Part shown: piece after piece, positions 8,538-33,659 of the stretch
How the letters are laid out: each line of letters starts with the position of its first letter
Numbering within the stretch: position 1 is the stretch's first letter
Assembly (NCBI GenBank): GCA_050734135.1
Contig: JBOHUG010000114.1
Coordinates: 38,637 to 102,636 of the forward strand
Reading direction: 5' to 3'
DNA from: Candidatus Dormibacteria bacterium
Lineage (GTDB): Bacteria > Chloroflexota > Dormibacteria > Aeolococcales > Bog-877
Length of the DNA stretch: 64,000 nt
Made by a program: the position numbers and the translations under genes
Notes under the pieces: generated by a model
What the model was told of the DNA's origin: nothing
The model's input: only the letters and a program-made list of their open reading frames with translations
Database searches by the model: none

Positions 8538-9173
8538 TCAGCTGGGCTTGAGCAGGGTGGCGACGTACCAGTCGCCGGCGACCTTTATGCAAGTGAGTTC
8601 GTCGGGGAGCCCGAGCGGCTCATGCGCCACCGGCTCGCAGGTGTACTCCTTGCTGCCGTTGAACGGCGCACAGACCTGGAGGGAGATCGTCACGGTGGCC
8701 CGGGACTTCTCCTGCTCGACGTAGGCCAAAGCCGGGGCCGCAACGTAGGCGCGGCGGGATTTGAAGGCTTCGACGATGGCGCGAGCCTGGGACTTCTTCG
8801 CCGGTGCCAGATATTGTCGGACCTGACTGACGTCGCTGTTCTCGAGCCCGACCAGGTAGCCGGCCACCGCCCCGGTCGAGCTGCTGTGCGAGGGTGTGGG
8901 GAGGGGATGGGTGGTCAGCAGCCGAATCAGGATCAGTACCACCAGAGCCCCGGCGAGCAGGAGGGTGAAGCGGCGCTGGCCGATCCGACCCGCCGGCCCC
9001 AGGGGTGTCAGCTGGGGCAGCGGCGCAACGGTCGACGAATCCTCATTGGGAATCCCAGAATCGCTCACTGGTGGAGCTCCCCTGCCGATGCCCTCTGCGC
9101 CACCTCCGGAAACCAAACCGGCCAGATCGGCGTTGTACTGGGTGGGCACGGCGCGTGCACGGTGCCTCCCCAC
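8538..9173 (-). CDS. Hypothetical bitopic membrane protein (cytoplasmic N-term, one TM, ~120-aa extracytoplasmic domain)
   Basis: 211 aa; hydrophobic stretch LLLAGALVVLILIRLL followed by a Cys-containing globular C-terminus. Convergent with fumC and divergent from PBP1A. Confidence 0.45.
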   Translation of the reverse strand: MGRHRARAVPTQYNADLAGLVSGGGAEGIGRGAPPVSDSGIPNEDSSTVAPLPQLTPLGPAGRIGQRRFTLLLAGALVVLILIRLLTTHPLPTPSHSSSTGAVAGYLVGLENSDVSQVRQYLAPAKKSQARAIVEAFKSRRAYVAAPALAYVEQEKSRATVTISLQVCAPFNGSKEYTCEPVAHEPLGLPDELTCIKVAGDWYVATLLKPS

Positions 9174-9277: not shown

Positions 9278-11362
9278 TTGACCCGCCCGCAGACCCGACG
9301 ACAAAGCCAGGCCCCGGGTGCCAACTGGCGCCGAATCGCGGCCGCGTCCGCCCTGGCGGCGGTCGCGGCTGTGGTCATCCTGGCGGTGCCCTTCACGGCG
9401 CTGGCGCGTGCCTATGGAGCGCTGCCGAAGGCGGTGGATCAGGGGGGCGACACCTTGATCTACGGGCAGGGAGGCGTCGAAATCGCCGACCTCCACCCCT
9501 CGGGAAGCAGCCGCATTCCGGTCCCCCTTCACGAGATCGCCCCGGTGATGCGGCAGGCGGTGGTGGCGATCGAGGACCGCAACTTCTGGAGCTCGCCCAG
9601 CTTTGATCTGGCCCGAATCGCCCAGGCAGCCTTCTTCGACGTGGTTCACCACAGCGAAGCCCAGGGTGCCAGCACCATCCCAGAACAGCTGGGCAAGATC
9701 CTCTACCTCCACGACGACAAGTCGCTCACCTACAAGGTCAAGGAGATTCTCTACGGCGAGGAGCTGACCGCCAAGCTCTCCCGCTCGACCATCCTCGACG
9801 AATACCTGAACGACGTGTATTTCGGCGAAGGCGCGACCGGCATCCAGGCGGCCTCCCTGACCTACTTCGGAGTGAATGCCTCTCAGCTCAACGCCAATCA
9901 GGCCTCGCTGCTGGCCGGACTCCTTCCCGAACCCAGCTACCTCGACCCCTTTCTCAACCTGGCGGCAGCCAGGCAGCGTCAGCAGTTGGTGGTGGCGGCG
10001 ATGCGGCGCCAGGGAGAGCTGAGCGCTTCCCAAGCCCGGGCGATCCTGGCCGCCGCTCCGCCACTGGCAGCGCCCGGTGGGAGCTCGGTCAATCAGGCGC
10101 CCTACTTCGTCGAAGAGGTCGAGAGCTGGCTCCAGAACCGATACGGCGGCGGCTACCGGACGATGGGCCTGCGGGTTCAGACCAGCCTCAATCTGACCCT
10201 CAATCAGGAGGCCCAGCAATTGGTGACCCAGACCGTTGCCGACGGCGCGGCCCAGCATCTGAGCGACGCGGCACTGGTGGCCGAGGACCCCAAGACCGGA
10301 GATGTCCTGGCCTGGGTCGGTGGCCCGGGAGCGAACTCGCCAGGCGGTCAGATCGACCTGGCCGCCACCCCACGGCAGCCAGGGTCCGAATTCAAGATAT
10401 TCAATTACCCGACCGCCCTTGAGGACCATGACATCACGATGACCACGCCCATCCTCGACGCCCCGCTGACCGTCCCTCTCAGCGGTGGCGGTTCGTACAC
10501 CGTGGTCGACTATGAGGGTCACTACGCGGGCGTGGTCCAGGCTCAGGTGGCACTGGGCAACTCGCTCAATGTCCCGGCGGTCCGGGTGGAGCTGAAGACC
10601 GGCATCCCCAACATCCTCGCCACCGCCCGCAATATGGGCGTTACCACTTTGACCCAACCCGACGGCGACTACGGTCCCAGTCTCACTCTGGGGGCCTACC
10701 CGGTGCCTCTCTGGGAGATGACCCAGGCCGGTGCCGCCTACGCCACCGAGGGTGTTCTTCATCCCACCACCTACGTGCTCCAGGTCACCAGTGACCAGGG
10801 CAACGTCATTTTCCGGGCGAACCCGACCGCGCGCCGGGTGCTCTCGACCCAGGTCAGCTACATCATGAACACGATCCTTTCCCGGAACAGCAACCGGCTG
10901 CTCGCCTTCGGCTCCGATACCCCGCTGGTCGTCGCGGGGCACACCGTTGCAATCAAGACCGGAACTTCCACTGACTTCCGCGACAACACCGCAGTGGGGT
11001 GGACCCCAAACCTGGTGGTGGGCGACTGGGTGGGCAACGCCAACGACTCACCGATGTATGGCGGGGGAGTCAACGGGATCACGGGCTGTGCCACCCTCTG
11101 GCACGATTTCATCGTCGACGCCCTGGCGAACACCCCGAACAGCTGGTACCAGCAGCCGAGCGGTCTGGCCACCAGGGTCATCGACGGGGAGACGGACTAC
11201 TACCTCCTGGGGAGCGGTCCCAGCACCAGCATCCTGGGTGGGGGAACTGTCACTCCGTCTCCGAGCCCCAGCGCCAGTCCCTCGGTCTCGCCGTCACCAA
11301 GCCCAACCTCGAGCCCGTCGCCCAGTCCACCTCCCAGTCCAACCCCAACCCCTACTCCCTAG
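9278..11362 (+). CDS. Class A penicillin-binding protein (PBP1A-type transglycosylase/transpeptidase) with a Pro/Ser/Thr-rich C-terminal tail
   Basis: GT51 motifs (AIEDRNFW, EQLGK, RSTILDEYLN) then a transpeptidase domain. It ends in ~45 aa of PSPSPS/TPTPTP low complexity. Confidence 0.85.
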   Translation: MTRPQTRRQSQAPGANWRRIAAASALAAVAAVVILAVPFTALARAYGALPKAVDQGGDTLIYGQGGVEIADLHPSGSSRIPVPLHEIAPVMRQAVVAIEDRNFWSSPSFDLARIAQAAFFDVVHHSEAQGASTIPEQLGKILYLHDDKSLTYKVKEILYGEELTAKLSRSTILDEYLNDVYFGEGATGIQAASLTYFGVNASQLNANQASLLAGLLPEPSYLDPFLNLAAARQRQQLVVAAMRRQGELSASQARAILAAAPPLAAPGGSSVNQAPYFVEEVESWLQNRYGGGYRTMGLRVQTSLNLTLNQEAQQLVTQTVADGAAQHLSDAALVAEDPKTGDVLAWVGGPGANSPGGQIDLAATPRQPGSEFKIFNYPTALEDHDITMTTPILDAPLTVPLSGGGSYTVVDYEGHYAGVVQAQVALGNSLNVPAVRVELKTGIPNILATARNMGVTTLTQPDGDYGPSLTLGAYPVPLWEMTQAGAAYATEGVLHPTTYVLQVTSDQGNVIFRANPTARRVLSTQVSYIMNTILSRNSNRLLAFGSDTPLVVAGHTVAIKTGTSTDFRDNTAVGWTPNLVVGDWVGNANDSPMYGGGVNGITGCATLWHDFIVDALANTPNSWYQQPSGLATRVIDGETDYYLLGSGPSTSILGGGTVTPSPSPSASPSVSPSPSPTSSPSPSPPPSPTPTPTP

Positions 11363-11364
11363 CG

Positions 11365-11853
11365 TCAGGCTGAGCTGGCCGCCGCCTCCGCCCTCGCCAG
11401 AACCAGCTCCCGGTTGGGCTTTCCCTGGCGCATCGGGCCCTGGCTGGCGAGCGCGTCGCCGACCACCGCCATCAGATTGTCGGCGCGGAACGGCTTGGGC
11501 AGATAGGCGAACCCGCCGGCTTGCATGCTCACCCGGAGGTCGAGTCGAGGCTGACGAGCGCTGGTGAAAATCACCGGAGTCCAGCTCCACTGGCTCCTGG
11601 CCAGCAGACGCCGGCACACTTCGAAGGCGCTCATCTCGACGAGATTGAGATCCAGGATCGCGCAGGCGTAGCTGCCCTGCCTGGCCTGCGCCAAGGCCGA
11701 CTTGGAGGAGTCGGCCTCGATCACTTCGAACCCCAGCCGCCGCAGGATCGACGCCGTGGCGGTTCGACTCACCTCGTCGCGATCGGCAACCAGGATTGCG
11801 CGCTCAGTCAACAGCTTGGACGTAGCCCCTTTGGGGGCTGCCGGGCTTGACAT
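11365..11853 (-). CDS. Stand-alone response-regulator receiver (REC) domain protein
   Basis: ILVADRDE acidic pocket, ILDLNL phospho-acceptor Asp and conserved Lys (YLPKPF). No output domain. Divergent from the VirD4-like gene. Confidence 0.65.
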   Translation of the reverse strand: MSSPAAPKGATSKLLTERAILVADRDEVSRTATASILRRLGFEVIEADSSKSALAQARQGSYACAILDLNLVEMSAFEVCRRLLARSQWSWTPVIFTSARQPRLDLRVSMQAGGFAYLPKPFRADNLMAVVGDALASQGPMRQGKPNRELVLARAEAAASSA

Positions 11854-11950: not shown

Positions 11951-13669
11951 GTGTCGCGCCCGGAGTCCACCCACTCCCCGGGCGCCGGCGGACAGCTGCT
12001 GGGTATGACCTCCAAAGGCGACCCCCCATTCGCCTCCATCGCCGGCCCAGCGGCGCTTTTGGGAATGGCCCTACTGGCGATGGCTGTTCACTTCCATCAA
12101 TCTCCATCCCCCGTCGGGAGCGTTCGGACGATCCTCACCGGAAGTCACTCTCCGGCGACGACCTTCGGGGCCGCCTGGCTGCCCCCGCCGGCCGTAATGG
12201 CCGCCTCTCTGGCGGGGGCGATCCTCCTCGGCGCCAGTACGGTGATCAAGCTGCGAAGTCGAAACCTGGTGGGGGCTGGAGTGCTGGGTCGCGCCCGGCG
12301 TGCCGGAAGCCGGGATCTCAGGGAACTTCGGCGCGGAGGAAGAGCACGCCGACGGGCTGATCCCCGAGTCCGGCTCGGAGACCACCGCCACCGGCCCGTC
12401 TGGCTGCCAAGCGACGAGCACCTGCTGGCATTGGGTCCGACCGGATCGGGCAAGTCGTCGGCGCTGGCGATTCCGGCCCTCCTCGAATGGCCTGGCGCAG
12501 TGGTCGTGACGGATCCCAAGGGCGAGTTGATTCGAACCACCCTTGCGCATCGTCGCACCCTGGGTCAGGTGGCGGTCTTCGCTCCGCTGATGAAACCGAC
12601 GGCGCGGTGGGACCCGGTCGGCTCCATTCAGAGTTCAGAGGACGCCCTGAAAGTGGCCGCCTTCCTCATGGGTCGTTCTCCCGAGAGAGAGCCGTTCTGG
12701 CACGACCTCGCCCGCCAACTGCTCCACGGAATGCTGATCGAGGCCGCCGATCTCCACATTGCCTTGGGCGGGATCCTCGAACTGCTGCAGTCGACGCCCG
12801 CCGAGGACCTCCCGGTGGTGATGCGGCACCCGGTCTCCCGGAGGCTGGTCCAGGGTGCTCTGAGCGGCGGAGATCGCACGGCGATGGGGGTGGTCGCGAC
12901 CCTGGTCTCCCAGCTAGGTGCCTATGGTTCAGATCAGGTGGCCAGCGCGACCGCGGAGAGTGACTTCGATCCAAGGGCGATCGCCGGCGGGCAGCTGAAG
13001 ACCCTCTATTGCGTGGTGGCCCCCCACGACGCTCCGGTGCTCCGGGGGCTGATCTCGGCATTGATCTCATGCTGCTGGCGGAGCCTGTTCGCGACCCCAC
13101 CTTCAGTTCCCGCGCTATTCGTGCTCGACGAGTTCACCCAGCTCAACAACCTGCCGGAGCTTCCGGCACTTGTGCAGTTGGGACGGTCCCAGGGAGTACG
13201 CATGCTGCTGATGGCCCAGGATCTCGGCTCGATCAACGCCGCCTACGGTGTCGAGGCCGCGGGCGCGCTTTGGGCCAACTGCCGGACCAAGCTTCTGCTG
13301 CCCGGAATCTCCGAGATCGAGTTGCTGGAGCGGGCGAGCAAGCTGGCCGGATACGCAACCCTACATCGCCGGTCTGAAGGCGGCCATCCCGAGGCGGTGT
13401 CATCGCAGCCGCTGCTCCATCCCGATGACATCCGTCGGCTCCGGCCACAGCGGGCGCTCCTGCTGCGGGGCACCGACCAGCCGGCGGAGATCCAACAACA
13501 CCCCTGGTTTCGAGACCGCTCCCTCAAGGCGATAGCCTCGAGCGGCGATCCGGAAGAGGGACCAACCCCCGCTCCGGGCCGTCCGCTTCGCGATTGGGTG
13601 GATCCCAACCCCGGCTGGTCAGCCAACGACTACCCCCTTCGCTGGAGCCCGGCGGACGAAGAGCCCTGA
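11951..13669 (+). CDS. Type IV secretion coupling protein (VirD4/TraG/TcpA-like T4CP ATPase)
   Basis: N-terminal TM segments, Walker A LALGPTGSGKSS, the VVVTDPKGE motif typical of TraG/VirD4, and Walker B ALFVLDEF. 572 aa. Confidence 0.75.
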   Translation: MSRPESTHSPGAGGQLLGMTSKGDPPFASIAGPAALLGMALLAMAVHFHQSPSPVGSVRTILTGSHSPATTFGAAWLPPPAVMAASLAGAILLGASTVIKLRSRNLVGAGVLGRARRAGSRDLRELRRGGRARRRADPRVRLGDHRHRPVWLPSDEHLLALGPTGSGKSSALAIPALLEWPGAVVVTDPKGELIRTTLAHRRTLGQVAVFAPLMKPTARWDPVGSIQSSEDALKVAAFLMGRSPEREPFWHDLARQLLHGMLIEAADLHIALGGILELLQSTPAEDLPVVMRHPVSRRLVQGALSGGDRTAMGVVATLVSQLGAYGSDQVASATAESDFDPRAIAGGQLKTLYCVVAPHDAPVLRGLISALISCCWRSLFATPPSVPALFVLDEFTQLNNLPELPALVQLGRSQGVRMLLMAQDLGSINAAYGVEAAGALWANCRTKLLLPGISEIELLERASKLAGYATLHRRSEGGHPEAVSSQPLLHPDDIRRLRPQRALLLRGTDQPAEIQQHPWFRDRSLKAIASSGDPEEGPTPAPGRPLRDWVDPNPGWSANDYPLRWSPADEEP

Positions 13670-13706
13670 GAGCCGAGGGGAAGCTCGTGGCTGGTCGCTA
13701 GGGGGG

Positions 13707-13997
13707 ATGGTGGAACTGCTGGCGACCTTCAGCACCGGACTGGACAACGTGATCCACACGCTGACCGGCTTGGCCCTGGGCGCCGTGGCCGTCCTCTGCC
13801 TCAGCTTTGCGGCAATTCGTTACATGACCGCCCTGGACAACAGCCAGCGCCGCGCCGCCGCCGTCCAGGGCCTGGTCACCGTGCTGCTCGGCGTCCTTCT
13901 CCTGGTGAACGAGGGAGCGGTGTTGAGCTTCGTGGAGGGGCTCTCAGGGAGCGACACCGCCTGCACCACCAGCAGCTGCTCCGGCACCACCCACTGA
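13707..13997 (+). CDS. Small two-TM membrane protein, VirB2/TrbC pilin-like candidate
   Basis: 96 aa, two hydrophobic helices (LTGLALGAVAVLCLSFAAI; LVTVLLGVLLLV). It lies between the T4CP and the VirB6-like gene and has a paralog at 33416. Confidence 0.4.
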   Translation: MVELLATFSTGLDNVIHTLTGLALGAVAVLCLSFAAIRYMTALDNSQRRAAAVQGLVTVLLGVLLLVNEGAVLSFVEGLSGSDTACTTSSCSGTTH

Positions 13998-14084
13998 GAC
14001 CTGCCCACTGCCTTCCGGCTCGCGCTGCTGGCCGGCGCCTCCTGGGGGCTGGCGATCTCGTTCTCAGCGATAACCTCGACCACG

Positions 14085-16211
14085 GTGGTCATCCCAGCCG
14101 TGACCGCTGCCCGCGCGATCGTGACCATCTCAACACCCACCCCGAAAGCCACTCCGACGGCGAATCCAACCGCGACAGAAGATCAGACAACCGCCGGAAG
14201 CACCGACCAGCAGTGCGGCGGGATCACCGATCCCATGTGCTACATCGTGGATGCCTTCGTGAGCGGCCCTGTGGCCATCATGGGCAGCCTCGACGGCAGC
14301 CCGGACCCCGACCACGTCAGTGCTACCACGGGAGCGATCACCGCTGGCCCGTGGCGGATCGTGACCACCCTCGTCGGCAGCAACCCAGCGGTGGACAGCT
14401 ACAACGGCGCCTGGGGCGAGCCAGCGCACCAGTGCGGAGGTCAAGGCTGCATCCCATGGGTGCAGCAACTCAACTCGATCCTGGGGCCGCTTTCGCTGAG
14501 CCTGCTGGTGCTCGCCTTCGCGATTCAGGCCACCCTCTTCATGATCGGCCAGCAGCTGAACTTGCGAGCCGGCCTCGTGCCCTGCCTGATCGCCGCCGGA
14601 ATCATCGGCGCTGGGCTGCCGCTGCACTTGGCCGGACGGGTGATTGACGCCGGTACCTGGGCCTCTCAGGCTCTGCTTGAGACCACCTTTGAGCACCTGG
14701 GCGACCAGAGCGGGCAGCCGATCGATCTGATGACCTGGCTGGCGATGACCGCCTACTGCCCCGAGGACAGTCCACTAGCCCACCCTGGAATCCACCTCTC
14801 CACCCCCGGCCCCACACCAGCTGAACAGGTGCTGGTCCAGCCCTGGATGGACCCCCAATTCACCCAGTCACACTGCATCGGCTCCGACAGCCCTGACTTC
14901 ACCAAGGAGGTTCTGGACCGCAGCGAGAACTTCTCCGGGCCCCCGCTGCACGACGCCAATTGCGACCGCGGAGACGCAGTTCCTGCCCAGTCACTCTGCA
15001 CCAACACCGACAACCAGGTCAACAACAATGCCGGCCAGGAGTGCCTGGAGGGGAGCGGCGGTGCCGACTTGCCTGGCGAGCAGCTGAACGCCTTGCCATT
15101 AGCGGGGGAGCCGCGGGCCGGGAACGGTCAGAGCCCCGGTGACTGCCGCTACGCGGACATCTACTGGGGTACGGTTCCCACCTTCACCGACGTGTGGAAG
15201 GGGGTCGGTCCCCACGGCCGGAATGGGTACGACGTTCCGGATGGAATCCAGGGGATGGTGGCCTTCACGGTACTGACCGGTCTGGCCCTCTGGCTGGCGC
15301 TTACTTATCTGGCTCGCTATCTCGCCTTGGCTGTATTGGCAGGCTGTTCCAGCCTCGCGTTTTTGCTTCTGGCCCTGCCGGGCGGCCGGCCGGCCTTCGC
15401 GCGCTACTGGCGGACGGTGGCGGAACTCTCTGCGGTAGTCGTGGTCCAGACCCTGGTCTTCCTAGTTTTCGTGGCTATCGTGACCACCGTCTCGGGGCTA
15501 TCTCCCAACCCAGCCGCGGCCCATCTCGGAGGCTGCCCTTTGATCTCGGCCAACGCTACTTGTGGAGCCAGCTCCACAGGTCTCCTGGGCGAGGTGGGCA
15601 GTGGTGACCCGGGTGACCAGTTCGCCAAGTGCCTGCTGGCGATCGTCACGGTATGGCTGATGCTGGAGGTGCCGAAGCGAATCAGCCGGGGCGAGATGGC
15701 GACCACCGGCGGACTCCGGACGCTGGCGGCCGCCTCGGGCGGTGCCCTCCTGGGTGGATTGGCAGTGGCCCGGGGCCAGTTGCAACCTCGGGTCGCGCGG
15801 TTCGGATCCCAGGCGGTGCCTACTGGCCGCTCATTGCTCGGCCGCACTGGTCCCAGAGAACACCAACTGGCGGATAGGCTGGAACGGGGGGAGTCCATCG
15901 GAGCGGCGGCGTGGCCCCAGGCGACGGGGCGTGAGACTCGCGAGCAGTACATCGGCCGCTCCTTGCTGGGTGCCAAGGGGACCCGGCCGGAGCTCCACCG
16001 CCTCCTCGGGCTCAGCACCGCGGATCTCAGCGCCATGCGCGAGCGCGCGGCCCAGGATCCCTCGGTCTGGGCTGATCTGGGCCGAAACTACGTGGCTGGC
16101 GGGGGCAGTCGGGTCCACGAGCTGGATGCTGCTTATCTCAACGCTCTCCGGCGGGGCCGACTGCATCGGGACTCCGACCCGCCCCACCGCGACCCGAGCG
16201 GCACTACCTGA
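14085..16211 (+). CDS. Polytopic membrane protein, VirB6/TrbL/TcpH-like T4SS channel component candidate
   Basis: 708 aa with a Cys-rich extracytoplasmic N-terminal region, a block of 5 or more TM helices (LARYLALAVL...PAFARYWRTV...VVQTLVFLVF) and a cytoplasmic tail. Its position matches a T4SS module, and it has a paralog at 33660. Confidence 0.5.
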   Translation: MVIPAVTAARAIVTISTPTPKATPTANPTATEDQTTAGSTDQQCGGITDPMCYIVDAFVSGPVAIMGSLDGSPDPDHVSATTGAITAGPWRIVTTLVGSNPAVDSYNGAWGEPAHQCGGQGCIPWVQQLNSILGPLSLSLLVLAFAIQATLFMIGQQLNLRAGLVPCLIAAGIIGAGLPLHLAGRVIDAGTWASQALLETTFEHLGDQSGQPIDLMTWLAMTAYCPEDSPLAHPGIHLSTPGPTPAEQVLVQPWMDPQFTQSHCIGSDSPDFTKEVLDRSENFSGPPLHDANCDRGDAVPAQSLCTNTDNQVNNNAGQECLEGSGGADLPGEQLNALPLAGEPRAGNGQSPGDCRYADIYWGTVPTFTDVWKGVGPHGRNGYDVPDGIQGMVAFTVLTGLALWLALTYLARYLALAVLAGCSSLAFLLLALPGGRPAFARYWRTVAELSAVVVVQTLVFLVFVAIVTTVSGLSPNPAAAHLGGCPLISANATCGASSTGLLGEVGSGDPGDQFAKCLLAIVTVWLMLEVPKRISRGEMATTGGLRTLAAASGGALLGGLAVARGQLQPRVARFGSQAVPTGRSLLGRTGPREHQLADRLERGESIGAAAWPQATGRETREQYIGRSLLGAKGTRPELHRLLGLSTADLSAMRERAAQDPSVWADLGRNYVAGGGSRVHELDAAYLNALRRGRLHRDSDPPHRDPSGTT

Positions 16212-16600
16212 TGCAGGCCGAGGTGCCGCAGCCGATTTCGGGAGTTCCGCTGCGCTGGGGGGGATTCACGGTTCGACAGCTGGGCTGGATCGCCATCGGA
16301 GCCGCTCTGCCGTACGTCTTGCTCCGTTTACAGCTGGCGCCCGAAGTCGCACTGGCCGCGCCCGCCCCGTGGTTGGTCGTGGCGCTGTGCTTTGCCGTCG
16401 GCCGACGAGAGGGCCGACAGCTGGACTCCTGGGTCGCGGATTGGCTCCGGTTCCGGCTCCAACCCCGCCGCCTCCGGCACCCCGGGAAGCAGACCACCAG
16501 CACTCGCCGCGAGGCGTTTATCGCCGTCGATCAAGGGATCGCGGCTGAGAGGGCTGGGCGGCTCCCGGGAGCCCGAACCCTCCCCTGGGTAGACCCTTGA
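16211..16600 (+). CDS. VirB3/PrgI/TcpE-like small membrane protein
   Basis: 129 aa, two TMs followed by GRREGRQLDSWVADWLRF. It lies immediately upstream of and overlapping the VirB4 ATPase gene, the classical VirB3 position. Confidence 0.5.
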   Translation: MQAEVPQPISGVPLRWGGFTVRQLGWIAIGAALPYVLLRLQLAPEVALAAPAPWLVVALCFAVGRREGRQLDSWVADWLRFRLQPRRLRHPGKQTTSTRREAFIAVDQGIAAERAGRLPGARTLPWVDP

Positions 16601-18894
16601 TCCTGGCCAGGCCACCGGCGCCGCGAGGCTCCACCCTGCAGCTGGTCGATGTCGAATTTCTGGAGAACCAGGTCGCCCACCTGTCCAACGGGGCGCAGCG
16701 GGCAGCGCTTCAGATTGAGCCAGTGAACCTAGCCCTGCAGGGAGAGGTGGAACAGGAACAGGTTTGGCGTCGCTATCGCCAGTTGCTGGCGGCCCTCACC
16801 GGTCCGGTTTCGATCTACTCGTCGTCGAAACCCGAGCCCGGCGGGGAGGAGTGGCATCCGTCCGCAGCCGGTGATGGGCCCATCCAGCTGCTGGCTCGCC
16901 AGGATCTCGAATTCTGCCAGCAGTTGATCCGTGGACACCTGGTGCAGAAACAGCGCCACCTCGTCGTGGTCTGGGGCGGCGAGCTGGCTAACCCACTGGC
17001 CGGGCTCAGCAGTCGGCTAGATCGGCTAAGAACGAGGGCGAAGAGCCATACCCGCGTCCTGGGAGGCGGCATCCAGGTCGGGTTGGACCAGCGCTGCGAG
17101 GTGATCGCGGCCAGCCTCGGTCAACTGGGAGCTCGAGCGCGTCGGATCGGCGACGGCGAGTGGCTGCAACTGCTGCAGGAGCACGGTTCCGGCCGCAGTG
17201 ACCGCGAACCGGTCAGTTTCGCCAGCTGGGTTGCGCCGGATGACGCGGAGGTGCTGGCGCGGCAGGTCAGGGTGGGAGACCGCTGGAGCCGAACCCTCTT
17301 CGTCGCCTCCTACCCAAGGCGGGTGGCTATTGGCTGGCTGGCACCGCTGCTCCGGGGCCTGGAGTGTGAGGTGACGGTGGCTCAGCACCTGGTGCCACTT
17401 CCCAAGCTGCTCAGCTTGAGCCGGCTTCGGCGCAAGATTCGCGGATTTGAGACCAGCCTGGTCGTCGACCACCTGCGCGGTCAGCGGCCGGACCGGGGCA
17501 CCGAGACGGCCCTTGGCGATGCGCTGACTCTGGAGGAGCAGGTGCTGGTCGAGGAGGAGCGACTCTTCCAGCTGGAGCTCTTCGTGACCTTGGCGGCAGA
17601 GACCGTCGCCATTCTCGACAGCGGTTGGCAGCAACTCTTGACCACCATGGCTGAGCTCGGCTGTGGAGCGGTACCGCTCACTCACCGGCACATAGACGGC
17701 TGGCGAGCCACTATCCCGACCGGCGTAAGTCCCTTCGGCTGGGGCCGAGAGATGACGGCGAGTGCCTTGGCGACAGGGTTCCCTTTCTTGCGGAGCAATC
17801 TCGCGGCCGACACCGGGGTGCTGCTCGGTCCCAGCCTGATCTCGAGAGAGCTGGTCATCGTGGACCCCTTCGCCCATACCAATCCCAACTTCAACATCGT
17901 GGTCCTCGGCACCTCCGGAGGTGGGAAGTCGTACACCGCCAAGCTCTTGGCGGCGCGACTGGCCCTGCGGGGCTGCCGGCTGCGCTGCATCGACCCCGTC
18001 GGCGAGTACCGCGAACTGGGGCGGCTTCTCGATGGAGCCTGTCGCGATATCGCTCCCGGCCGCAGCTCTGGGCTCAGCGCCCTGGGACCGGCAGGAGTTG
18101 AGGGGGACGGAGCGGCGGCGGCCTCGGTACGGGCCGCGCGAGCGCTGGTGGTCTTGGAACTGCTGGCAGCCGGCAGATCCGGGGAATGGGATCTGCCGGA
18201 AGACGATGCTGAGGCCTTGGAGGCGACGCTGACCCAGCTGTTTTCGGCGCAACAGGATCCCCAGCTCCCGGACCTGGTAGCAGCCCTGGAGGAGGCTGGC
18301 CGGTCAGTACTTGCCCGTCGATTGGGTCGCTTCACCGGGGGGCTGCTGGGCGGAATCTTCGACGGTCGTGCCGGGGCCGAGCTCGCCGGCCTCGCGACCG
18401 TCTTCTCACTGGCGGGATGGGGCGGAGACCGGGAGCAGCTGCTGGCTCCAGCGATGCAGATGATCCTGCTGCAGCTGGAGTCGGAGACCTCTCGGGATCA
18501 GAGCGCTCTGCGCCTGGTTGTCGTCGACGAGGCTGAAGTTCTCCTGGGCCGACCCCGGAGCGCGGCCGCCCTTGAGGCCCTGAGCCGCCGGGTTCGCAAG
18601 CTGGGGACCGGACTGATGGTGATCTCCCAGGTGGTTGAGGACTTTCTCAACTCTCCCGTCGGGAATGTGATCGTCCGAAACTGCCACACCAAATTGCTCC
18701 TCCGCCAGGAGGAGGTGGCCATCCCGGCGGTTCGGGCGGCCTTTGGACTCTCCCCAGCGGAGTGCGACCTGCTCCGGGACGCACCTCCCGGGTGCGGCAT
18801 CGTCATCGCCGGACGGGAGCGAGCCGCCTTTCAGGGAGCGGCGCCGCCGGCACTCCACCAGGTGCTCTGTACTGACGCGGAGGCACTCGGTTGA
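16597..18894 (+). CDS. VirB4/TrbE/TcpF-family conjugation ATPase
   Basis: 765 aa; Walker A VVLGTSGGGKSY, the VirB4-typical IDPVGEY motif and Walker B VVVDEAEVL. Confidence 0.8.
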   Translation: MILARPPAPRGSTLQLVDVEFLENQVAHLSNGAQRAALQIEPVNLALQGEVEQEQVWRRYRQLLAALTGPVSIYSSSKPEPGGEEWHPSAAGDGPIQLLARQDLEFCQQLIRGHLVQKQRHLVVVWGGELANPLAGLSSRLDRLRTRAKSHTRVLGGGIQVGLDQRCEVIAASLGQLGARARRIGDGEWLQLLQEHGSGRSDREPVSFASWVAPDDAEVLARQVRVGDRWSRTLFVASYPRRVAIGWLAPLLRGLECEVTVAQHLVPLPKLLSLSRLRRKIRGFETSLVVDHLRGQRPDRGTETALGDALTLEEQVLVEEERLFQLELFVTLAAETVAILDSGWQQLLTTMAELGCGAVPLTHRHIDGWRATIPTGVSPFGWGREMTASALATGFPFLRSNLAADTGVLLGPSLISRELVIVDPFAHTNPNFNIVVLGTSGGGKSYTAKLLAARLALRGCRLRCIDPVGEYRELGRLLDGACRDIAPGRSSGLSALGPAGVEGDGAAAASVRAARALVVLELLAAGRSGEWDLPEDDAEALEATLTQLFSAQQDPQLPDLVAALEEAGRSVLARRLGRFTGGLLGGIFDGRAGAELAGLATVFSLAGWGGDREQLLAPAMQMILLQLESETSRDQSALRLVVVDEAEVLLGRPRSAAALEALSRRVRKLGTGLMVISQVVEDFLNSPVGNVIVRNCHTKLLLRQEEVAIPAVRAAFGLSPAECDLLRDAPPGCGIVIAGRERAAFQGAAPPALHQVLCTDAEALG

Positions 18895-19580
18895 TCCCGA
18901 AGGGTTCCTGGCTAGCTGCCCTGGCTCTGGGCGGCTGCACCGTCCCTCTCCTCATCGGGATAGCCCTCCTGGGGCTCCTCTCGGCGGGGGCGGTGGCGGC
19001 CGGCTGGAGCTCGGTCAGCGACCTGCTGCCAGAACCTGGGGGGTTCATGCTCCCCGTCGGTGCCGACATCCCGGACGGGTCGGTCGGCTTTCCCGTCTGG
19101 GCTCTCCCCTGCGGGCCGGAGCCGGGTGCGCTGGCAGTCGATCCCAGCAGCTGCACCGGCTCGCCCAACCCGTTCCCCGCGGACTACCAGGGTTTCGCCA
19201 CCGGGCAGTGCACCTGGTACGTCGCCACTCGTCGCCGGGTGACCTGGCACACGTCCTCTGGGGAGCTGGGCGGGAATGCGGGGCAATGGCTGCAGCTGGC
19301 GTCCGATTCCGGCTACGAAGTGGGCCCCGACCCGCAGGTGGGCGCCATCGCCGTCTACACCGACGCTGGCGCGGGTCATGTCGCGCTGGTGGTCGGGGTC
19401 GCCGCCTCAGGAAACTACACGGTGGCGGAAGCCAACTGGGTGTTTCTCGGTCCGCGGGCGCCCTACGTGGACTTGCGCGGGGTCGCTGCCGGGACGACAG
19501 GCGATGTCTTCGAGAAGTTGGCCGGCTTCATCTACGGTCCCCAGCAGGCTGGTCCGGGGGCGAACGGCACCCTATCCTGA
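18891..19580 (+). CDS. Membrane-anchored CHAP-domain peptidoglycan hydrolase (VirB1-analogue of Gram-positive T4SS)
   Basis: N-terminal TM, then CHAP catalytic Cys motif GQCTWYVA and His region GHVALVV. Translationally coupled to virB4 (ATGA overlap). Confidence 0.75.
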   Translation: MIPKGSWLAALALGGCTVPLLIGIALLGLLSAGAVAAGWSSVSDLLPEPGGFMLPVGADIPDGSVGFPVWALPCGPEPGALAVDPSSCTGSPNPFPADYQGFATGQCTWYVATRRRVTWHTSSGELGGNAGQWLQLASDSGYEVGPDPQVGAIAVYTDAGAGHVALVVGVAASGNYTVAEANWVFLGPRAPYVDLRGVAAGTTGDVFEKLAGFIYGPQQAGPGANGTLS

Positions 19581-19609
19581 GGTGGTGCTCTGTGGGGGAC
19601 GGCGGCCCG

Positions 19610-19873
19610 ATGCCTGACCTCAGTGTTCCGGGGCCAAGCCGTCTGCGCGCGGTTGACGCCCTCGCCGCGGACACGCGCTCGTTGCTGCGCCGGGCCACGA
19701 AGGTGCAGCGACAAACCGCTGACCTTGGTGAGACGGCGATTACTGAGCAAGGTCAATTGGTGGTGGAGGTGACGGAGCGGCTCCTCGGCAGCCTGGAGGA
19801 TCTGCGCCGCGACGAACGACTGCTCGCGCGCCAGAATCTCCAGGGAATTGGGGGGGATTCCGACCAACCGTAA
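19610..19873 (+). CDS. Small hypothetical coiled-coil protein (last gene of module A), uncertain
   Basis: 87-aa ORF, charged and helical (LEDLRRDERLLARQNL), lying between the CHAP gene and a hairpin terminator. No recognisable domain. Confidence 0.3.
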   Translation: MPDLSVPGPSRLRAVDALAADTRSLLRRATKVQRQTADLGETAITEQGQLVVEVTERLLGSLEDLRRDERLLARQNLQGIGGDSDQP

Positions 19874-19920
19874 GAGTGCGGTGTTCCCCAGGGCGGCTCC
19901 GCTCGCAGGCTTTGTACTGG

Positions 19921-19952
19921 TCCGGTGGTCCCCCGGACCGCTGTCTTCTCCG
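19921..19952 (+). terminator. Candidate intrinsic terminator of the T4SS-like operon
   Basis: GGTCCGG-TGGTCCC-CCGGACC stem-loop followed by a U-rich tract (GCUGUCUUCUCC), ~50 nt after the last + strand ORF. Confidence 0.3.
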
Positions 19953-20385: not shown

Positions 20386-20952
20386 CTAATTCGGACGACT
20401 GCTTTTCTCCCATTCGCGAATCCCCTTCAGTCGGGGGCGCCTCTCTGCGATCATCCCCACCAGAGCGTCGGCGGCTTGTCGCTCGAACCGAAGTTGGAAC
20501 CCCTCGGGCGGGTGTCGCACCAGGTTCTCGGCTTGGTTCGAGTGGCCCCGGGTGAGCCGCTCCACGGTCACCCCGGTGGTGTTGACGGTGAACACGACGA
20601 TCCGGTTACCCGGAATGGTGACCTCGACGCTCTCCAGTGAGGCCCAGGTCGCAACCAGGTCGCAGTTCCGGACCACTCGCCGGATGCCGCGAGGACCGAC
20701 AAAGATTTCGTTGTGGCCCTGCCCGATGTAAGAAGCCACCGCGACCAGAATCGTGGCGAAAAGGCAGAGCAGCAAGACAGCCCAATTACGGCTCAGCAGC
20801 GTCAACACCAGCCCCACCGGAATCAGAACCGCTCCGACCGTGGTCCCGGCACTGAACGCCGCCCGCCGACGGTGAACCTCAGACGACCGGATCCGGAGCT
20901 CGTCGTCGTTGGCGCCCCCGCCGCGGTTGACCTCAGCCATCGCGGTACTCAC
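20386..20952 (-). CDS. Membrane protein with bacterial PH (YdbT-like) domain
   Basis: 188 aa; two N-terminal TM helices then a ~100-aa segment with bPH_2-like topology. Hypothetical. Confidence 0.5.
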   Translation of the reverse strand: MSTAMAEVNRGGGANDDELRIRSSEVHRRRAAFSAGTTVGAVLIPVGLVLTLLSRNWAVLLLCLFATILVAVASYIGQGHNEIFVGPRGIRRVVRNCDLVATWASLESVEVTIPGNRIVVFTVNTTGVTVERLTRGHSNQAENLVRHPPEGFQLRFERQAADALVGMIAERRPRLKGIREWEKSSRPN

Positions 20953-20967: not shown

Positions 20968-21849
20968 TCATGGCGCCGCCACCCGAGCCCGACCCAGCAG
21001 CCACCCGACCGCCAGGGTGGCGCCCGCCAGCGCCGGGAGCACGAAGGGATGACCGCCTCGGGAGCGTTCACGTCGGGGTCCGAGCCGGTCCGCCCCTACC
21101 AATCCTGCACATGCCGCGGCGCCGCCCCAGGCCCAGCGGCGACCACCGGTCGGAGTGCTGACGGCCACCGCGAGCGCACCCGAGCCCAGGAGGAGATGGC
21201 TCGCAGCCCGGGAGCCCTGATCTCCCAGCAGGACGGGCAGGCTCCTCCGGCCAGCCAGCCGGTCCCGCTCAATGTCCGGGCCGCCATTGGCGAGGTGGAG
21301 CCCCACCCCCAGCCCAGCTGCGAGCACTGCGGCCTGCCCCCGACCCGGCAGCGGAAGGCCGACTGCGGCCGGCCCCAGGAGCGGCACGGTGCTCAGCCCG
21401 GTTGCAAAAGGCAAGAACGAGAACGGCGTGCGGCTGAGCCCCAGGCTGTAGCTCCATCCGCTCGCCAGGCCCACCAGCATCACTCGGAGGGCGGCCCTCC
21501 CTGCCAGCCTGGCGAAGAGCGCCGAGGCGCCCCCGCAGGCGATGCCGATCAGCCAGGCGTCACGGCGGGAAACCGCTCCCTGGGCAATGGGTTTGTACGG
21601 TTGGTGGGTCCGGTCCCAGGGAGCGTCAAAGGCGTCATTGAGCACCCCTGTGCTGACCTGAGCCAGAGCCATCGCCGCGCTCGCGCACGCCAGCCTGGCC
21701 GCCCACCCCGCTTCCAGGCGGGATTGCCCCGCCTGACGCCAGGCGCTCCATCCGGCGACGGTGGTCACCGCGGTGCAGACCGCGGATGGTCCCGGATGCA
21801 GCAGCTGCAGGTAGCCGCGCACGCCCCGAACCCACCCGAACTTTGGCAT
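20968..21849 (-). CDS. UbiA-family aromatic prenyltransferase
   Basis: Multi-TM protein with the UbiA Asp-rich motif NDAFDAPWDR. The ORF extends to 21885, but the internal start at MPKF (21849) avoids overlap with divergent hemE. Confidence 0.7.
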   Translation of the reverse strand: MPKFGWVRGVRGYLQLLHPGPSAVCTAVTTVAGWSAWRQAGQSRLEAGWAARLACASAAMALAQVSTGVLNDAFDAPWDRTHQPYKPIAQGAVSRRDAWLIGIACGGASALFARLAGRAALRVMLVGLASGWSYSLGLSRTPFSFLPFATGLSTVPLLGPAAVGLPLPGRGQAAVLAAGLGVGLHLANGGPDIERDRLAGRRSLPVLLGDQGSRAASHLLLGSGALAVAVSTPTGGRRWAWGGAAACAGLVGADRLGPRRERSRGGHPFVLPALAGATLAVGWLLGRARVAAP

Positions 21850-21890
21850 GCTCACCAGGTCATGGTCGCTCCACCTCCGGCCCATTCGCC

Positions 21891-22949
21891 GTGACGGAGG
21901 GCGCCGAACGCTTCTTGGCGGCCACCCGCCGCCAGGCGACCGATGCTACCCCGGTCTGGTTCATGCGCCAGGCTGGCCGCTCCCTGCCCCAGTACCGTGC
22001 CCTGCGCGAGCGCTTCGGCTTTCTGGAGCTGGCCACCAATCCCGAGCTGAGTGTCGATGTCACCTGTCTGCCGGTGGAGCTCCTGGGCGTGGACGCGGCT
22101 GTGGTCTTCGCCGACATCATGCTGCCGCTCCAGGGAATGGCGGTAGATTTCGAGATTCGCGAGAGCGTCGGACCGGTGATCGCTCGGCCGATCCGCTCCG
22201 AGCGCCAAGTGAGCGAGCTGCGGGTGGTGGCTGCCGAGGAGGCCACTCCCTACCTCTTTCCAGCCATTCGAGCGACCCGCGCGCGTTTGGGGAGAAAGGC
22301 CGCAGTGGTCGGGTTCGGGGCGGCCCCCTTCACACTCGCGTGCTATCTCGTCGAGGGTCAGGGGAGCCGGGATTATCCCCACGTTCGGTCTTTGATTCGC
22401 TCCGAGCCCGGGCTCTGGGACCGGCTGATGACCACCCTGACCGAAGTCCTGGCCCGATACCTGATCGCCCAGGCCCAGGCCGGCGCCGACGTGGTGCAGC
22501 TGTTCGACAGCTGGATCGGAGCGCTGGACCAAGCCACCTTTGTGCGCCACGTCGCCCCTCACCTCCAGACTCTGATCGGGCGGCTGCGGCCGATGTTACC
22601 GGTCATCTACTTCTCCACCTCCTCGAGCCACCTACTCCGGGCGGTTGCCGGCACTCAGCCCGATGGGATATCTGTCGATTGGCGGGTGCCGCTGCGGCAG
22701 GCGTGGGAGGTGGTGGGCAGGGAGCGATTCATCCAGGGCAACCTCGATCCGGCCCTGGTACTGGCTCCCTGGCCCGTTCTGGAGGTGAGCGCCCACGAGG
22801 TGCTCAAGGAAGCGGAGCACCGTCCCGGGCACATCTTCAACCTGGGGCACGGGGTGCTCCCGGACTCTGACCCGGACCAGCTCCGGCGGCTGGTGGAGCT
22901 TGTCCACGAGTGGGGGCCCACGGTCGAAGCCGAGGAAGACAGCCGCTGA
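21891..22949 (+). CDS. hemE: Uroporphyrinogen decarboxylase
   Basis: PVWFMRQAGR signature near the N-terminus; ~352 aa when started at the GTG at 21891 (the ORF track extends artefactually upstream to 21786). Confidence 0.85.
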   Translation: MTEGAERFLAATRRQATDATPVWFMRQAGRSLPQYRALRERFGFLELATNPELSVDVTCLPVELLGVDAAVVFADIMLPLQGMAVDFEIRESVGPVIARPIRSERQVSELRVVAAEEATPYLFPAIRATRARLGRKAAVVGFGAAPFTLACYLVEGQGSRDYPHVRSLIRSEPGLWDRLMTTLTEVLARYLIAQAQAGADVVQLFDSWIGALDQATFVRHVAPHLQTLIGRLRPMLPVIYFSTSSSHLLRAVAGTQPDGISVDWRVPLRQAWEVVGRERFIQGNLDPALVLAPWPVLEVSAHEVLKEAEHRPGHIFNLGHGVLPDSDPDQLRRLVELVHEWGPTVEAEEDSR

Positions 22950-23080: not shown

Positions 23081-23093
23081 TGTGGGAGGACGT

Positions 23094-24092
23094 ATGCGCG
23101 GAGCCCGCTTTGCTGGGCGCGCCTGGCTTGCTGCCGGCGTGGCCGGATTGGTATGGGTCTCCTCGATCTTTGGACCGGGCCTCGGAGCCGTAGCTCAGCA
23201 ATCGACCGACGCTGCCAACCAGCAAGCTCTCACGAACCTCCTCAATCAGTTGGAGGCCCAAGGAGAGGTCGCCAGCGCCAGCTCGGTCAGGATCCTGCTG
23301 ACAAAGATTGAGGCGAACCAAGAGGCGCTCAACTCGCTGAATCAGCAGTTGAGCACCGACCAAACGACCCAGCAGGTGCTGCAGGTTCAACTGTCCGGCG
23401 ATCGCCAGGCCTTGATCAGTCTGGTCAGCACCGCCTACGTCGACGGAAACGGGGCTGCCGAAGTCGCCACCGCCCTGGCCTCCCCTGACATGACCCAATT
23501 TTTCGACAACTCCACCCTGCCTGACGCCATCGCCTCCCAGGTGGCTCAGCTGGTGAACTCGATTCAGCACGATCAGCAGTCCATCGCCAAAGCGCAGCAG
23601 CAGCTTCTCGCCGATGAGGGCAGCGCCCAATCGATCCAGGGTCAGCTGGGGATCCAGTCCAACGAGCTGTTGGCCGAGCTAGTCCACCCGTCCGCCGCCG
23701 TCGGCACGGGCGACTGGGCCTTCGCCTTCGGTACCTGCACCTACTGGGCGGCGGGCCAGTGGCGGGCCAACGGCTGGGACGTCAACTGGGGTGGGGATGC
23801 CTACCAGTGGTGGGCCAATGCCGCCGCCGCCGGCCACGCGGAGGGCAGCACTCCTGAAGTGGGCGCGATCGTGGTCTGGCCGCCGGATTCAGGAGGGGCG
23901 TCGGACGCGGGTCATGTCGCCTACGTCACCGCGGTCGACGTGCCTGGCGCCGGCTCCCCCAACAACTTTGAAGTCTCCGAGATGAACTACTACGGCAACG
24001 GCGGAGGCTTCGACAAGGTCGACTACCGGGTTGTTCCGGACTCGGGCTCCGGCTTCGACGGGTTCATCTACCCGCCCAGCGGCGGCTCGTGA
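23094..24092 (+). CDS. Secreted coiled-coil + CHAP-domain peptidoglycan hydrolase (PcsB/RipC-like)
   Basis: Signal peptide, ~180 aa Q/L-rich heptad region, then C-terminal CHAP (FGTCTYWAAGQW...GAIVVW...GHVAYV). The ATG at 23094 has a GGGAGGA RBS. Confidence 0.75.
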   Translation: MRGARFAGRAWLAAGVAGLVWVSSIFGPGLGAVAQQSTDAANQQALTNLLNQLEAQGEVASASSVRILLTKIEANQEALNSLNQQLSTDQTTQQVLQVQLSGDRQALISLVSTAYVDGNGAAEVATALASPDMTQFFDNSTLPDAIASQVAQLVNSIQHDQQSIAKAQQQLLADEGSAQSIQGQLGIQSNELLAELVHPSAAVGTGDWAFAFGTCTYWAAGQWRANGWDVNWGGDAYQWWANAAAAGHAEGSTPEVGAIVVWPPDSGGASDAGHVAYVTAVDVPGAGSPNNFEVSEMNYYGNGGGFDKVDYRVVPDSGSGFDGFIYPPSGGS

Positions 24093-24093
24093 G

Positions 24094-24729
24094 GTGGCGC
24101 AGCTAACCTGGCCGGCCTACACGCCCAGGGTCGCCCTCACCCTCCGAAACGATGAGAAGACCCCGGCGCGGCGGCTCCCGTTGCTGGCCAGCCGGCTCCG
24201 CTGGATCCTGGCCGCGTCGGTGCTGCTGGTCAGCACACCGGTGCTGGGTGCGCTGGCGACAGGCGGCGCCTCAGGGCCACCCTCTACGGCCCCGGCGGCA
24301 ATTGCGCAGGTGGCCAGCCAGGCCCGCAGCATTCTCTCCGTCACCGACTATCAGGTGACCCTGCCGCTCCAGGAAGCCCAGGTACTGCCGCCGCCGCCAC
24401 CACCGGCCGTGGCGGCGGGAATGCCCTTCGGTTCAGCGTTCTGGCAGGCGGTGCCGGAACCTCCAACCGGCACCATCATGCAGATCATCTGGTCGGCGGC
24501 CCAGCAGTACAACGTCTCGTACACCTGGCTACTCGGTGTGGCTCAGTGCGAATCGGGCCTGAATCCCACCGACGTCAACAGGTCCTCGGGTGCCAGCGGC
24601 CTCTTCCAATTCATGCCAGCGACCTTCCATGCCCACGGGGGCACCGATATCTGGGACCCGGTGCAGCAGTCCGACATCGCCGCCAAAATGTTCTCGATCG
24701 GCGAGTCGGGGGAGTGGGTCTGCAAGTAG
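24094..24729 (+). CDS. Lytic transglycosylase (SLT domain) protein
   Basis: Signal/TM (RWILAASVLLVSTPVLGALA), Pro-rich linker, then SLT motifs AQCESGLNP...SGASGLFQFMPATF. Start assigned to the GTG at 24094 immediately after the preceding stop. Confidence 0.65.
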   Translation: MAQLTWPAYTPRVALTLRNDEKTPARRLPLLASRLRWILAASVLLVSTPVLGALATGGASGPPSTAPAAIAQVASQARSILSVTDYQVTLPLQEAQVLPPPPPPAVAAGMPFGSAFWQAVPEPPTGTIMQIIWSAAQQYNVSYTWLLGVAQCESGLNPTDVNRSSGASGLFQFMPATFHAHGGTDIWDPVQQSDIAAKMFSIGESGEWVCK

Positions 24730-32213: not shown

Positions 32214-32234
32214 GGGTGGCGACGGTCTGGGGCC

Positions 32235-32873: not shown

Positions 32874-32877
32874 TCCG

Positions 32878-33348: not shown

Positions 33349-33415
33349 CGAGCGCCAGCGCTTTCCCCCAGCGGACATAGGGGAGGGAGCATCTCAGTCA
33401 GCAGGGGGTAGATTC

Positions 33416-33654
33416 GTGGGCGAGCTAAATTCATTGCTCAATTCCTGGGTTCTGATCGGACAGGGAATAATCGGCAGCCTAGGTACATTGGCGTTTGTCA
33501 GTGCCTTTGTCTGGCGCGTGGTTGCCCCCAACCCTCACAGTGCCATGGAGGCCCTAACGATGGTTGGGCCGGATCGCCGTCGGAACCCTGGGGGTGGAGC
33601 TGGCGGGCGTGCTCACCCACGTGCTGCTGGCGGCAGTCCCGCACAGCGTCGGCT
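33416..33654 (+). pseudogene. Pilin-like two-TM protein gene (paralog of 13707) interrupted by an apparent +1 frameshift
   Basis: Frame 2 gives MGELNSLLNSWVLIGQGIIGSLGTLAFVSAFVWRVV...AMEALT, then degenerates into low complexity. Frame 0 from ~33558 continues WLGRIAVGTLGVELAGVLTHVLLAAVPHSVG-stop, a second TM helix. Joined, the protein resembles ORF 13707 (MVELL...). Confidence 0.35.
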
Positions 33655-33659
33655 GAACC

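Follow-up and report, generated by a model that had tools for sequence, protein, structure and literature searches.

Positions 11951–19873 of a 64,000-nucleotide stretch of DNA from a Candidatus Dormibacteria bacterium (GenBank assembly GCA_050734135.1, contig JBOHUG010000114.1, positions 38,637–102,636 of the forward strand; GC content approximately 67%; hereafter the window) hold seven genes of a type IV secretion system (T4SS), which we call module 1. The results showed that module 1 is chromosomally fixed in Dormibacterota, vertically inherited and under purifying selection, and the sequence makes it likely that it encodes a functional MPF-FATA (monoderm-type) T4SS that is an organelle of the cell instead of serving the transfer of a mobile element. 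The seven open reading frames (ORFs) all lie on the + strand and follow one another closely; three of the junctions are gaps (37, 87 and 29 nt) and three are overlaps of 1–4 nt:

11951–13669, + strand: type IV coupling protein (T4CP) of the VirD4/TraG family, first gene of the operon, 572 aa with two N-terminal transmembrane (TM) segments, assigned by Pfam
13707–13997, + strand: VirB2/T4SS-pilin-like protein, 96 aa with two predicted TM segments and sub-threshold Pfam matches
14085–16211, + strand: putative extended VirB6/TrbL-like polytopic membrane protein, 708 aa, assigned by TM segments and position
16211–16600, + strand: PrgI/VirB3-like protein, 129 aa
16597–18894, + strand: VirB4 ATPase (VirB4-1), 765 aa, full length with its N-terminal domain, assigned by NCBIfam and PDB matches
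18891–19580, + strand: membrane-anchored CHAP peptidoglycan hydrolase, a VirB1 analogue, 229 aa with one N-terminal TM segment
19610–19873, + strand: conserved helical ORF of 87 aa, last gene of the operon
19918–19940, + strand: GC-rich hairpin, candidate operon terminator

The original prediction, made from the DNA letters and ORF translations, had described seven co-directional, tightly packed genes here, and all of these ORFs proved to be real. Its VirD4/TraG coupling ATPase matched the Pfam families T4SS-DNA_transf (E = 3.7e-44; 151.8 bits against a cut-off of 20.1), TrwB_AAD_bind (1.5e-26) and TraG-D_C (3e-21) as well as TrwB in the PDB (1E9R, 1e-8); the Walker A motif (GPTGSGKS), the DPKGE motif and Walker B are invariant across 23 species. 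The protein that had been called VirB3/PrgI-like and said to overlap the next gene scored above gathering with PF12666 (4.4e-9; 37.2 bits against 27), and its gene shares 4 nt with virB4-1. For the predicted VirB4 ATPase, the best NCBIfam match was the VirB4-like CD1110 family (2.9e-49) and the PDB match was 4AG5, a Gram-positive VirB4 structure (6.3e-48); Walker A (GTSGGGKS) and Walker B (DEAE) are invariant among the orthologues. An assignment of the ATPases to FtsK/HerA clades had been named as a result that would undermine the prediction; they matched VirB4 (4AG5, TrwK) and TrwB/VirD4 and not FtsK/HerA. The CHAP hydrolase, whose gene starts within the end of virB4-1, was likewise confirmed (PF05257, 7.8e-17; 62 bits against a cut-off of 26), and its catalytic Cys (GQCTWYV) and His (GHVA) are invariant in 25 copies.

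The 96-aa protein has the two TM segments that had been predicted for it and resembles T4SS pilins below the Pfam threshold. With respect to the last gene, which had been presented as a small ORF ending in a hairpin terminator, the ORF stood but the terminator became less certain. The 87-aa ORF gave no match in the Pfam scan; orthologues of 84–87 aa occupy the same position, and since the substitutions relative to four of them numbered 119, 112 and 201 at codon positions 1, 2 and 3, the third-position excess identifies it as a real coding sequence. An antisense ORF of 293 aa called over this gene in one assembly is spurious, given the same codon-position pattern. The hairpin found by the consensus scan has a weak T-tract, and the count of hairpin-type terminator sites was not above the shuffled expectation. 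A scan for sigma-70 promoters over the operon region found none.

The conservation of module 1 was followed in at least 22–25 species representatives of Dormibacterota carrying the locus (loci L003–L034). All of them have the same gene order at the same site: fumC, a hypothetical gene, PBP1A, a response regulator gene (– strand), T4CP, the pilin-like gene, the VirB6-like gene, prgI, virB4, CHAP, the 87-aa ORF, a TM protein gene (– strand), ubiA (– strand), hemE, a second CHAP gene, SLT and M20. An MFS transporter is added in some lineages, and an M23 peptidase in the most divergent. The VirB4 proteins are 42–80% identical to that of the window. Median identities to the window were 88% for the pilin-like protein, 71% for the VirB6-like protein, 71% for CHAP, 63% for T4CP, 57% for VirB4 and 50% for PrgI, and 77% (fumC), 72% (PBP1A), 61% (HemE) and 53% (UbiA) for the flanking genes, so that the divergence of the T4SS genes brackets that of their housekeeping neighbours. 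The pilin-like protein is the most conserved of the locus, with 55 of its 96 residues invariant and a length of 96 aa in 21 of 22 copies, and all module-1 ORFs are intact and near-constant in length throughout the sample. Thus, of the two distributions that had been considered, a conserved chromosomal position and a patchy one, the sampled species display the former, which strongly supports the suggestion of a domesticated or chromosomally fixed T4SS.

VirB4-1 of the window is 100% identical to a VirB4 family protein from a Candidatus Dormibacteria metagenome-assembled genome. Its homologues fall into 59 clusters at 90% identity, which grade smoothly from 100% down to 43% identity, and the source names of the clusters are nearly all Dormibacterota; one is ‘Acidoferrales’, probably mislabelled. 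An exhaustive phmmer (HMMER) search over 1.84 billion representative proteins scored the Dormibacterota clade at 856–506 bits and the next match at 261 bits; given this gap, nothing indicates a recent exchange between Dormibacterota and organisms outside the lineage. The same search found no close VirB4-1 orthologue in Chloroflexota proper.

Contigs fully syntenic with Dormibacterota have also been deposited as ‘Candidatus Micrarchaeaceae archaeon’, ‘Verrucomicrobiia bacterium’ and ‘Candidatus Acidoferrales bacterium’ (L018, L034 and P0002/P0078). Their VirB4 proteins are 43–83% identical to that of the window, with 78% for the VirB4-2 (see below) of P0078, and the records are probably mislabelled metagenome-assembled genomes.

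The genes flanking module 1 are, by Pfam, those that the original prediction had described:

9278–11362, strand not stated: PBP1A, upstream flank
11365–11853, – strand: response regulator consisting of a REC domain only (Response_reg, 1.9e-18), divergent from the T4CP gene and a candidate regulator
20968–21885, – strand: UbiA, downstream flank
21786–22949, strand not stated: URO-D/HemE, downstream flank

The position of the response regulator gene is conserved in 21 loci, and the housekeeping neighbours of the whole region are plsY, fumC, PBP1A, ubiA, hemE, folB, dtd and ispH. The statement that no relaxase, integrase, Rep/Par or FtsK-like TraB gene occurs in the window also held. A Pfam search of essentially all of its approximately 57 ORFs gave no match to a relaxase, integrase/recombinase, Rep, Par or FtsK/TraB family; the remaining window ORFs are, by Pfam, housekeeping, cell-wall and signalling genes only, and the unannotated gaps left are too short for any gene of this kind. 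The precomputed Pfam tables of the 20-kb flanks in other species hold no relaxase family, and no oriT-binding protein, competence or recombination gene was found in the 64 kb or in the 20-kb flanks of more than 20 loci. The composition of module 1 is native (tetranucleotide z = 0.75; GC 0.677 against approximately 0.67 in the surroundings). There were no att-like direct repeats, as the imperfect matches found were at chance level only, and the sole tRNA of the window (Glu, 43674–43750) lies 24 kb from module 1.

The label ‘orphan’, which the original prediction had given to module 1, is misleading: 10 kb downstream there is another, paralogous VirB3/VirB4/VirB2/VirB6-like set, including a second VirB4 and a TrbL_4 protein that had been overlooked. 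This set, module 2 (29296–34562), consists, in this order and with dtd between the third and fourth genes listed, of:

29296–30222, + strand: two-TM VirB3/PrgI-like N-terminus fused to a degenerate ParA/CbiA-like domain, assigned by sequence and position
30219–32213, + strand: VirB4-2 ATPase, 664 aa, Pfam P-loop_TraG/AAA_10/DUF87
32235–32873, + strand: conserved 212-aa protein between virB4-2 and dtd, syntenic in L010 and L011 at 66–79% identity
33416–33688, + strand: second small pilin-like membrane protein, with 79-aa orthologues in L010 and L011 at 80–86% identity
33660–34562, + strand: TrbL_4 (VirB6-like) polytopic membrane protein, 300 aa, Pfam TrbL_4 6.5e-13, above gathering

VirB4-2 matched NCBIfam VirB4 families (approximately 1e-18) and, in the PDB, 4AG5 (1.3e-14) and TrwK (3e-8); its Walker motifs are intact and it is 29% identical to VirB4-1. 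Its homologues form 52 clusters spanning 100 to 43% identity, and the named ones are nearly all from Dormibacterota. The VirB3-like fusion gene overlaps virB4-2 by 4 nt; the fusion protein has no Pfam match and only a weak hhalign match to the PrgI-like protein of module 1 (10%), and the nearest VirB4-2 relative outside Dormibacterota has a CbiA/ParA protein upstream. No Pfam or NCBIfam match was found for the 212-aa protein, whereas the orthologues of the TrbL_4 protein match TrbL_3/TrbL_4. Module 2 is syntenic between folB and ispH where VirB4-2 is 72% and 46% identical, it shares its contigs with module 1, and its conservation equals that of module 1. It may be either a second translocon or the accessory half of the same machine. 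A recent duplication as the source of the two VirB4 proteins was rejected, since they score lower against each other (70–145 bits) than either does against outside clades.

The 708-aa protein was the least straightforward part of module 1. Its designation as VirB6/TrbL-like agrees with its polytopic nature, its position and weak TrbL_4 matches of orthologues, but the window copy has no Pfam match. Among 40 orthologues, eight match TrbL_4 (best E = 0.0019) and one matches TrbL/VirB6 PF04610 (0.0045); a set of 57 homologues, all from Dormibacterota, contains none with a Pfam domain. When the TM region was aligned with the TrbL_4 protein of module 2, hhalign gave a probability of 70% (E = 4e-5), and the gene sits at the prgH position of the pCF10 gene order. 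The protein has a conserved, Cys-rich hydrophilic domain of about 350 residues (approximately residues 40–390), followed by a C-terminal helical domain. An AlphaFold2 model built with 40 homologues had a mean pLDDT (per-residue confidence) of 56.5 and was confident at residues 390–470 and 590–700 only, and a Foldseek search of the PDB with it gave no match at E <= 0.001. We regard the protein as VirB6-like with moderate confidence.

Several points weigh against the interpretation of module 1 as a complete and functional T4SS. The VirB6 assignment draws on weak profile matches and on position, and the ectodomain of the protein gave no confident structural model. A VirB8-like (NTF2-fold, bitopic) subunit was not identified, and none of the neighbouring proteins gave a Pfam, NCBIfam or PDB-sequence match of that kind; the description of the module as the minimal conserved core of monoderm conjugation machines was thus overstated. 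The pilin-like protein matches T4SS_pilin (7.9e-5) and TrbC/VirB2 (2.8e-3) below the Pfam gathering score in both cases. Because their NCBIfam scores lie under the cut-offs (168 bits for VirB4-1 against an equivalog cut-off of 325, and a match of 4.4e-34 to the CD1115 family for T4CP, under the cut-off of that family), VirB4-1 and T4CP must be seen as divergent members of their families. In module 2, alignment of the DNA with two orthologues showed that the pilin-like gene is frameshifted in this genome by a 1-nt insertion near 33556; its conserved C-terminal half and stop codon can still be read in the +1 frame, and the frameshift may be either a real lesion (a pseudogene) or an assembly error. 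The relaxase search covered the window and the 20-kb flanks, and a relaxase may be encoded elsewhere in the genome. Finally, the locus counts are those of sampled representatives and represent a lower bound, not a prevalence over all Dormibacterota genomes.

In all species sampled, the operon has a conserved membrane-anchored protein encoded on the opposite strand at either side, a 211-aa protein with one TM segment and an alpha/beta domain (8538–9173, – strand) and a 188-aa protein with two TM segments (20386–20952, – strand). They are candidates for missing T4SS subunits, e.g. a VirB8 analogue. Profile searches against PDB sequences were empty for both, and a single-sequence AlphaFold2 model of the 211-aa protein reached a pLDDT of 48.8.

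Outside Dormibacterota, the best match of VirB4-1 was a patescibacterial VirB4 (261 bits, full-length alignment) encoded in the context PrgI, VirB4, M23, dnaN and dnaA. A neighbour-joining tree with Kimura distances and 100 bootstraps recovered shallow clades only: the VirB4-1 and VirB4-2 clades of Dormibacterota had 100% support each, and VirB4-1 grouped with the VirB4 of Patescibacteria (the Candidate Phyla Radiation, CPR) in 0 of 100 replicates. Clade hidden Markov models (HMMs) of the CPR, actinobacterial-type and Firmicute-type sets gave equal scores for VirB4-1, and the BLASTP bit scores were likewise roughly equidistant. A sister relationship of VirB4-1 to the CPR clade was thus recovered by neither the tree nor the clade HMMs, and we make no such claim. 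VirB4-2 scored best with the actinobacterial-type clade HMM (193–224 bits, against 113–177 for the other clades). In the PLSDB plasmids, the best VirB4 match had 165 bits and none covered 80% of the query. When the Dormibacterota profiles were aligned by hhalign with the single pCF10 proteins from PrgD to PcfA, nothing reached a probability of 30%.

The closest known analogue is the T4SS of Patescibacteria, which is chromosomal, relaxase-less and MPF-FATA-derived (Quinonero-Coronel et al. 2025, PMC12102498). It is essential in Ca. Southlakia epibionticum according to the passages of PMC12102498 and PMC12857230 that cite Wang et al. 2023, and the latter, a 2025 review, describes it as the first host-essential T4SS, with VirB2-like pilins that are unusual among monoderms. 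Dormibacterota are mentioned there as a sister lineage only and not analyzed, and PMC12102498 leaves open whether the patescibacterial system arose by horizontal transfer or ancient inheritance. The patescibacterial and Dormibacterota systems have in common an MPF-FATA-type VirB4, PrgI/VirB3, a VirB6-like protein, a VirB2-like pilin and peptidoglycan hydrolases, and both are chromosomal, lineage-wide and largely vertical, with no linked relaxase and no recognisable VirB8. The M23 peptidase directly after virB4 in basal Dormibacterota is a further likeness. On the other hand, Dormibacterota are a free-living soil lineage with genomes of approximately 2.4–2.9 Mb, whereas Patescibacteria are ultra-small epibionts. 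In Dormibacterota the operon opens with the highly conserved T4CP gene, but in CPR the T4CP is usually unlinked and proved non-essential; a single ultra-conserved pilin gene contrasts with several divergent paralogues in CPR; and, unlike in CPR, the locus lies away from dnaA and shows no TrsD-like split gene. Of the two systems, that of Dormibacterota is the one with the extended VirB6 and the second VirB3/VirB4/VirB2/VirB6 set.

In 14 of 24 CPR VirB4 loci (L036–L058), the opposite strand encodes a class A PBP 7–10 kb downstream of virB4, and PBP1A lies just upstream of the Dormibacterota operon. This may be coincidence in related small genomes or a shared linkage.

The Prg/Pcf system of the Enterococcus faecalis plasmid pCF10, the prototype of MPF-FATA, is collinear with module 1: small membrane proteins, a protein at the PrgH position, PrgI, VirB4 and a hydrolase, together with a VirD4-like T4CP. 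In the nomenclature of the pCF10 core, prgH encodes the polytopic protein, PrgJ is the VirB4 that follows PrgI, and the hydrolase holds the PrgK position. VirB4-1 scores only approximately 97–105 bits with PrgJ, and the plasmid pCF10 carries MobC, a relaxase, Rep/Par, adhesins and the VirB8-like PrgL/PrgD, none of which was identified at the Dormibacterota locus. Actinobacterial T4SS sets (TrbL_3/TrbL_4, PrgI-family and DUF87 VirB4 proteins, e.g. on Embleya and Streptomyces replicons) share TrbL_4 with module 2. The Embleya locus encodes a PrgI-family protein, an ATP-binding VirB4 and a T4CP, whereas module 2 lacks a T4CP of its own, is interleaved with dtd, is flanked by folB and ispH, and is chromosomally fixed.

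The possibility exists that module 1 is a domesticated DNA-transfer system, serving either chromosomal conjugation between kin with a relaxase encoded elsewhere or a relaxase-independent DNA import or export. The archaeal Ced/Ted and Helicobacter pylori ComB systems provide the precedent for the latter, being chromosomal, vertically inherited, relaxase-less derivatives of VirB4-based machines. The conserved T4CP has the TrwB_AAD_bind and TraG-D_C domains typical of DNA-transfer T4CPs, and in a contig scan preselected by two Dormibacterota-derived peptide patterns, chromosomal VirB4 proteins of Altiarchaeota/DPANN came next after Patescibacteria among the matches listed. Moreover, the T4SS genes of the patescibacterial class ABY1 co-localise with competence and recombination genes (PMC12102498). 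Against this stands the lack of any relaxase, oriT-binding, competence or recombination gene in the regions searched. The match to the CedD model in the NCBIfam search is weak and confined to the P-loop/Walker A region, and no CedA-like protein was recognised at the locus. To our knowledge, the Ced/Ted and ComB import systems also have no VirD4-type T4CP. On balance we consider a DNA-transfer function unlikely, but it is the strongest of the alternatives.

The other reading offered by the original prediction, that the module is the transfer region of a very large integrative and conjugative element (ICE) that extends beyond the window, where its relaxase, integrase and ends would be located, fared worse. 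The parts are homologous to conjugation genes, and one distant VirB4 relative (P0141, 33% identity) adjoins a Replic_Relax protein, ArdC and a primase. However, since the module occupies the same site among the same housekeeping genes, in the same order and with matching divergence, in the 22–25 species, and has native composition, no att-like repeats, intact and constrained ORFs, no close relatives outside the lineage and no sign of recent outside exchange, we regard the ICE as refuted and give it hardly any remaining probability. Equally, the reading that an ancient conjugative element has lost its function here and is decaying, as the absent relaxase and the frameshifted pilin-like gene of module 2 might suggest, is contradicted by seven intact module-1 genes of constant length and invariant catalytic motifs in the 22–25 species, a pilin-like protein more conserved than fumarase, and a third-position bias even in the 87-aa ORF.

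We return to module 1 as a probable fixed organelle. How the machine is assembled, what it transports and in which direction we infer from homology with pCF10/pIP501-type machines. The membrane-anchored VirD4-type T4CP would recruit the substrate, and VirB4, as a hexamer bound to PrgI/VirB3 and the VirB6-like protein, would power both the assembly and the passage through the single membrane. The 96-aa VirB2-like protein, with its extreme conservation, would form a structural element of the conduit, and the CHAP hydrolase would open the peptidoglycan locally. We also propose that the Cys-rich hydrophilic domain of the extended VirB6 may be exposed at the cell surface. The chances that the substrate of the Dormibacterota T4SS is non-conjugative appear about even to us. 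Since the locus is relaxase-less, has no DNA-processing gene and is conserved as a host trait, it would most likely translocate a host-encoded macromolecule upon contact, or mediate interaction between cells, as has been proposed for the T4SS of Patescibacteria, and would not serve the self-transfer of an element.

Some other features of the window should be mentioned. Between the modules, positions 23082–24729 hold a conserved pair of genes, one for a further CHAP protein with a membrane anchor and one for an SLT/Rpf-like transglycosylase. It is this pair, and not the T4CP gene, that the REC-only response regulator adjoins in the most divergent lineages. A stretch of lower GC content (0.61) extends from 40043 to 42173. 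Within it, the small ORFs 40152–40355 and 40360–40545 look like one membrane protein broken by a stop codon, the approximately 480 nt of non-coding DNA that follow them (40–41 kb) gave no match in an Rfam search, and positions 41028–42173 encode a PcsB-like protein in which a signal peptide is combined with a long coiled coil and a CHAP domain. At 3314–5375, a lipid A-type acyltransferase (PF03279) adjoins a GT4 glycosyltransferase; the pair resembles the actinobacterial PatA/PimA genes for phosphatidylinositol mannosides and not lipopolysaccharide synthesis.

Dormibacterota are abundant in soil but uncultured, and what is known of them concerns mainly dormancy and the oxidation of trace gases. 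In recent phylogenies they are, together with Chloroflexota, the sister group of Patescibacteria. It is conceivable, albeit quite improbable in our judgement, that the T4SS of Dormibacterota and Patescibacteria descend from one chromosomal T4SS fixed in a common Terrabacteria ancestor, that free-living Dormibacterota use it in an obligate interaction with other cells that depends on contact, and that the dual VirB4/VirB6 sets form a new composite machine. If so, the domestication of a conjugation machine would predate the epibiotic lifestyle of CPR, and contact in Dormibacterota may serve nutrient or nucleic-acid acquisition or exchange between kin. Full-text literature searches (T4SS, VirB4, secretion system) found no published report of a T4SS in Dormibacterota. 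Until now, a fixed, relaxase-less monoderm T4SS has been a peculiarity of the ultra-small, host-dependent Patescibacteria. The Dormibacterota case suggests that such domestication is not tied to genome reduction and would provide an outgroup for testing the origin of the CPR system, and it points to a machine at the cell surface of Dormibacterota that had gone unrecognised, and possibly to a lifestyle that depends on contact.

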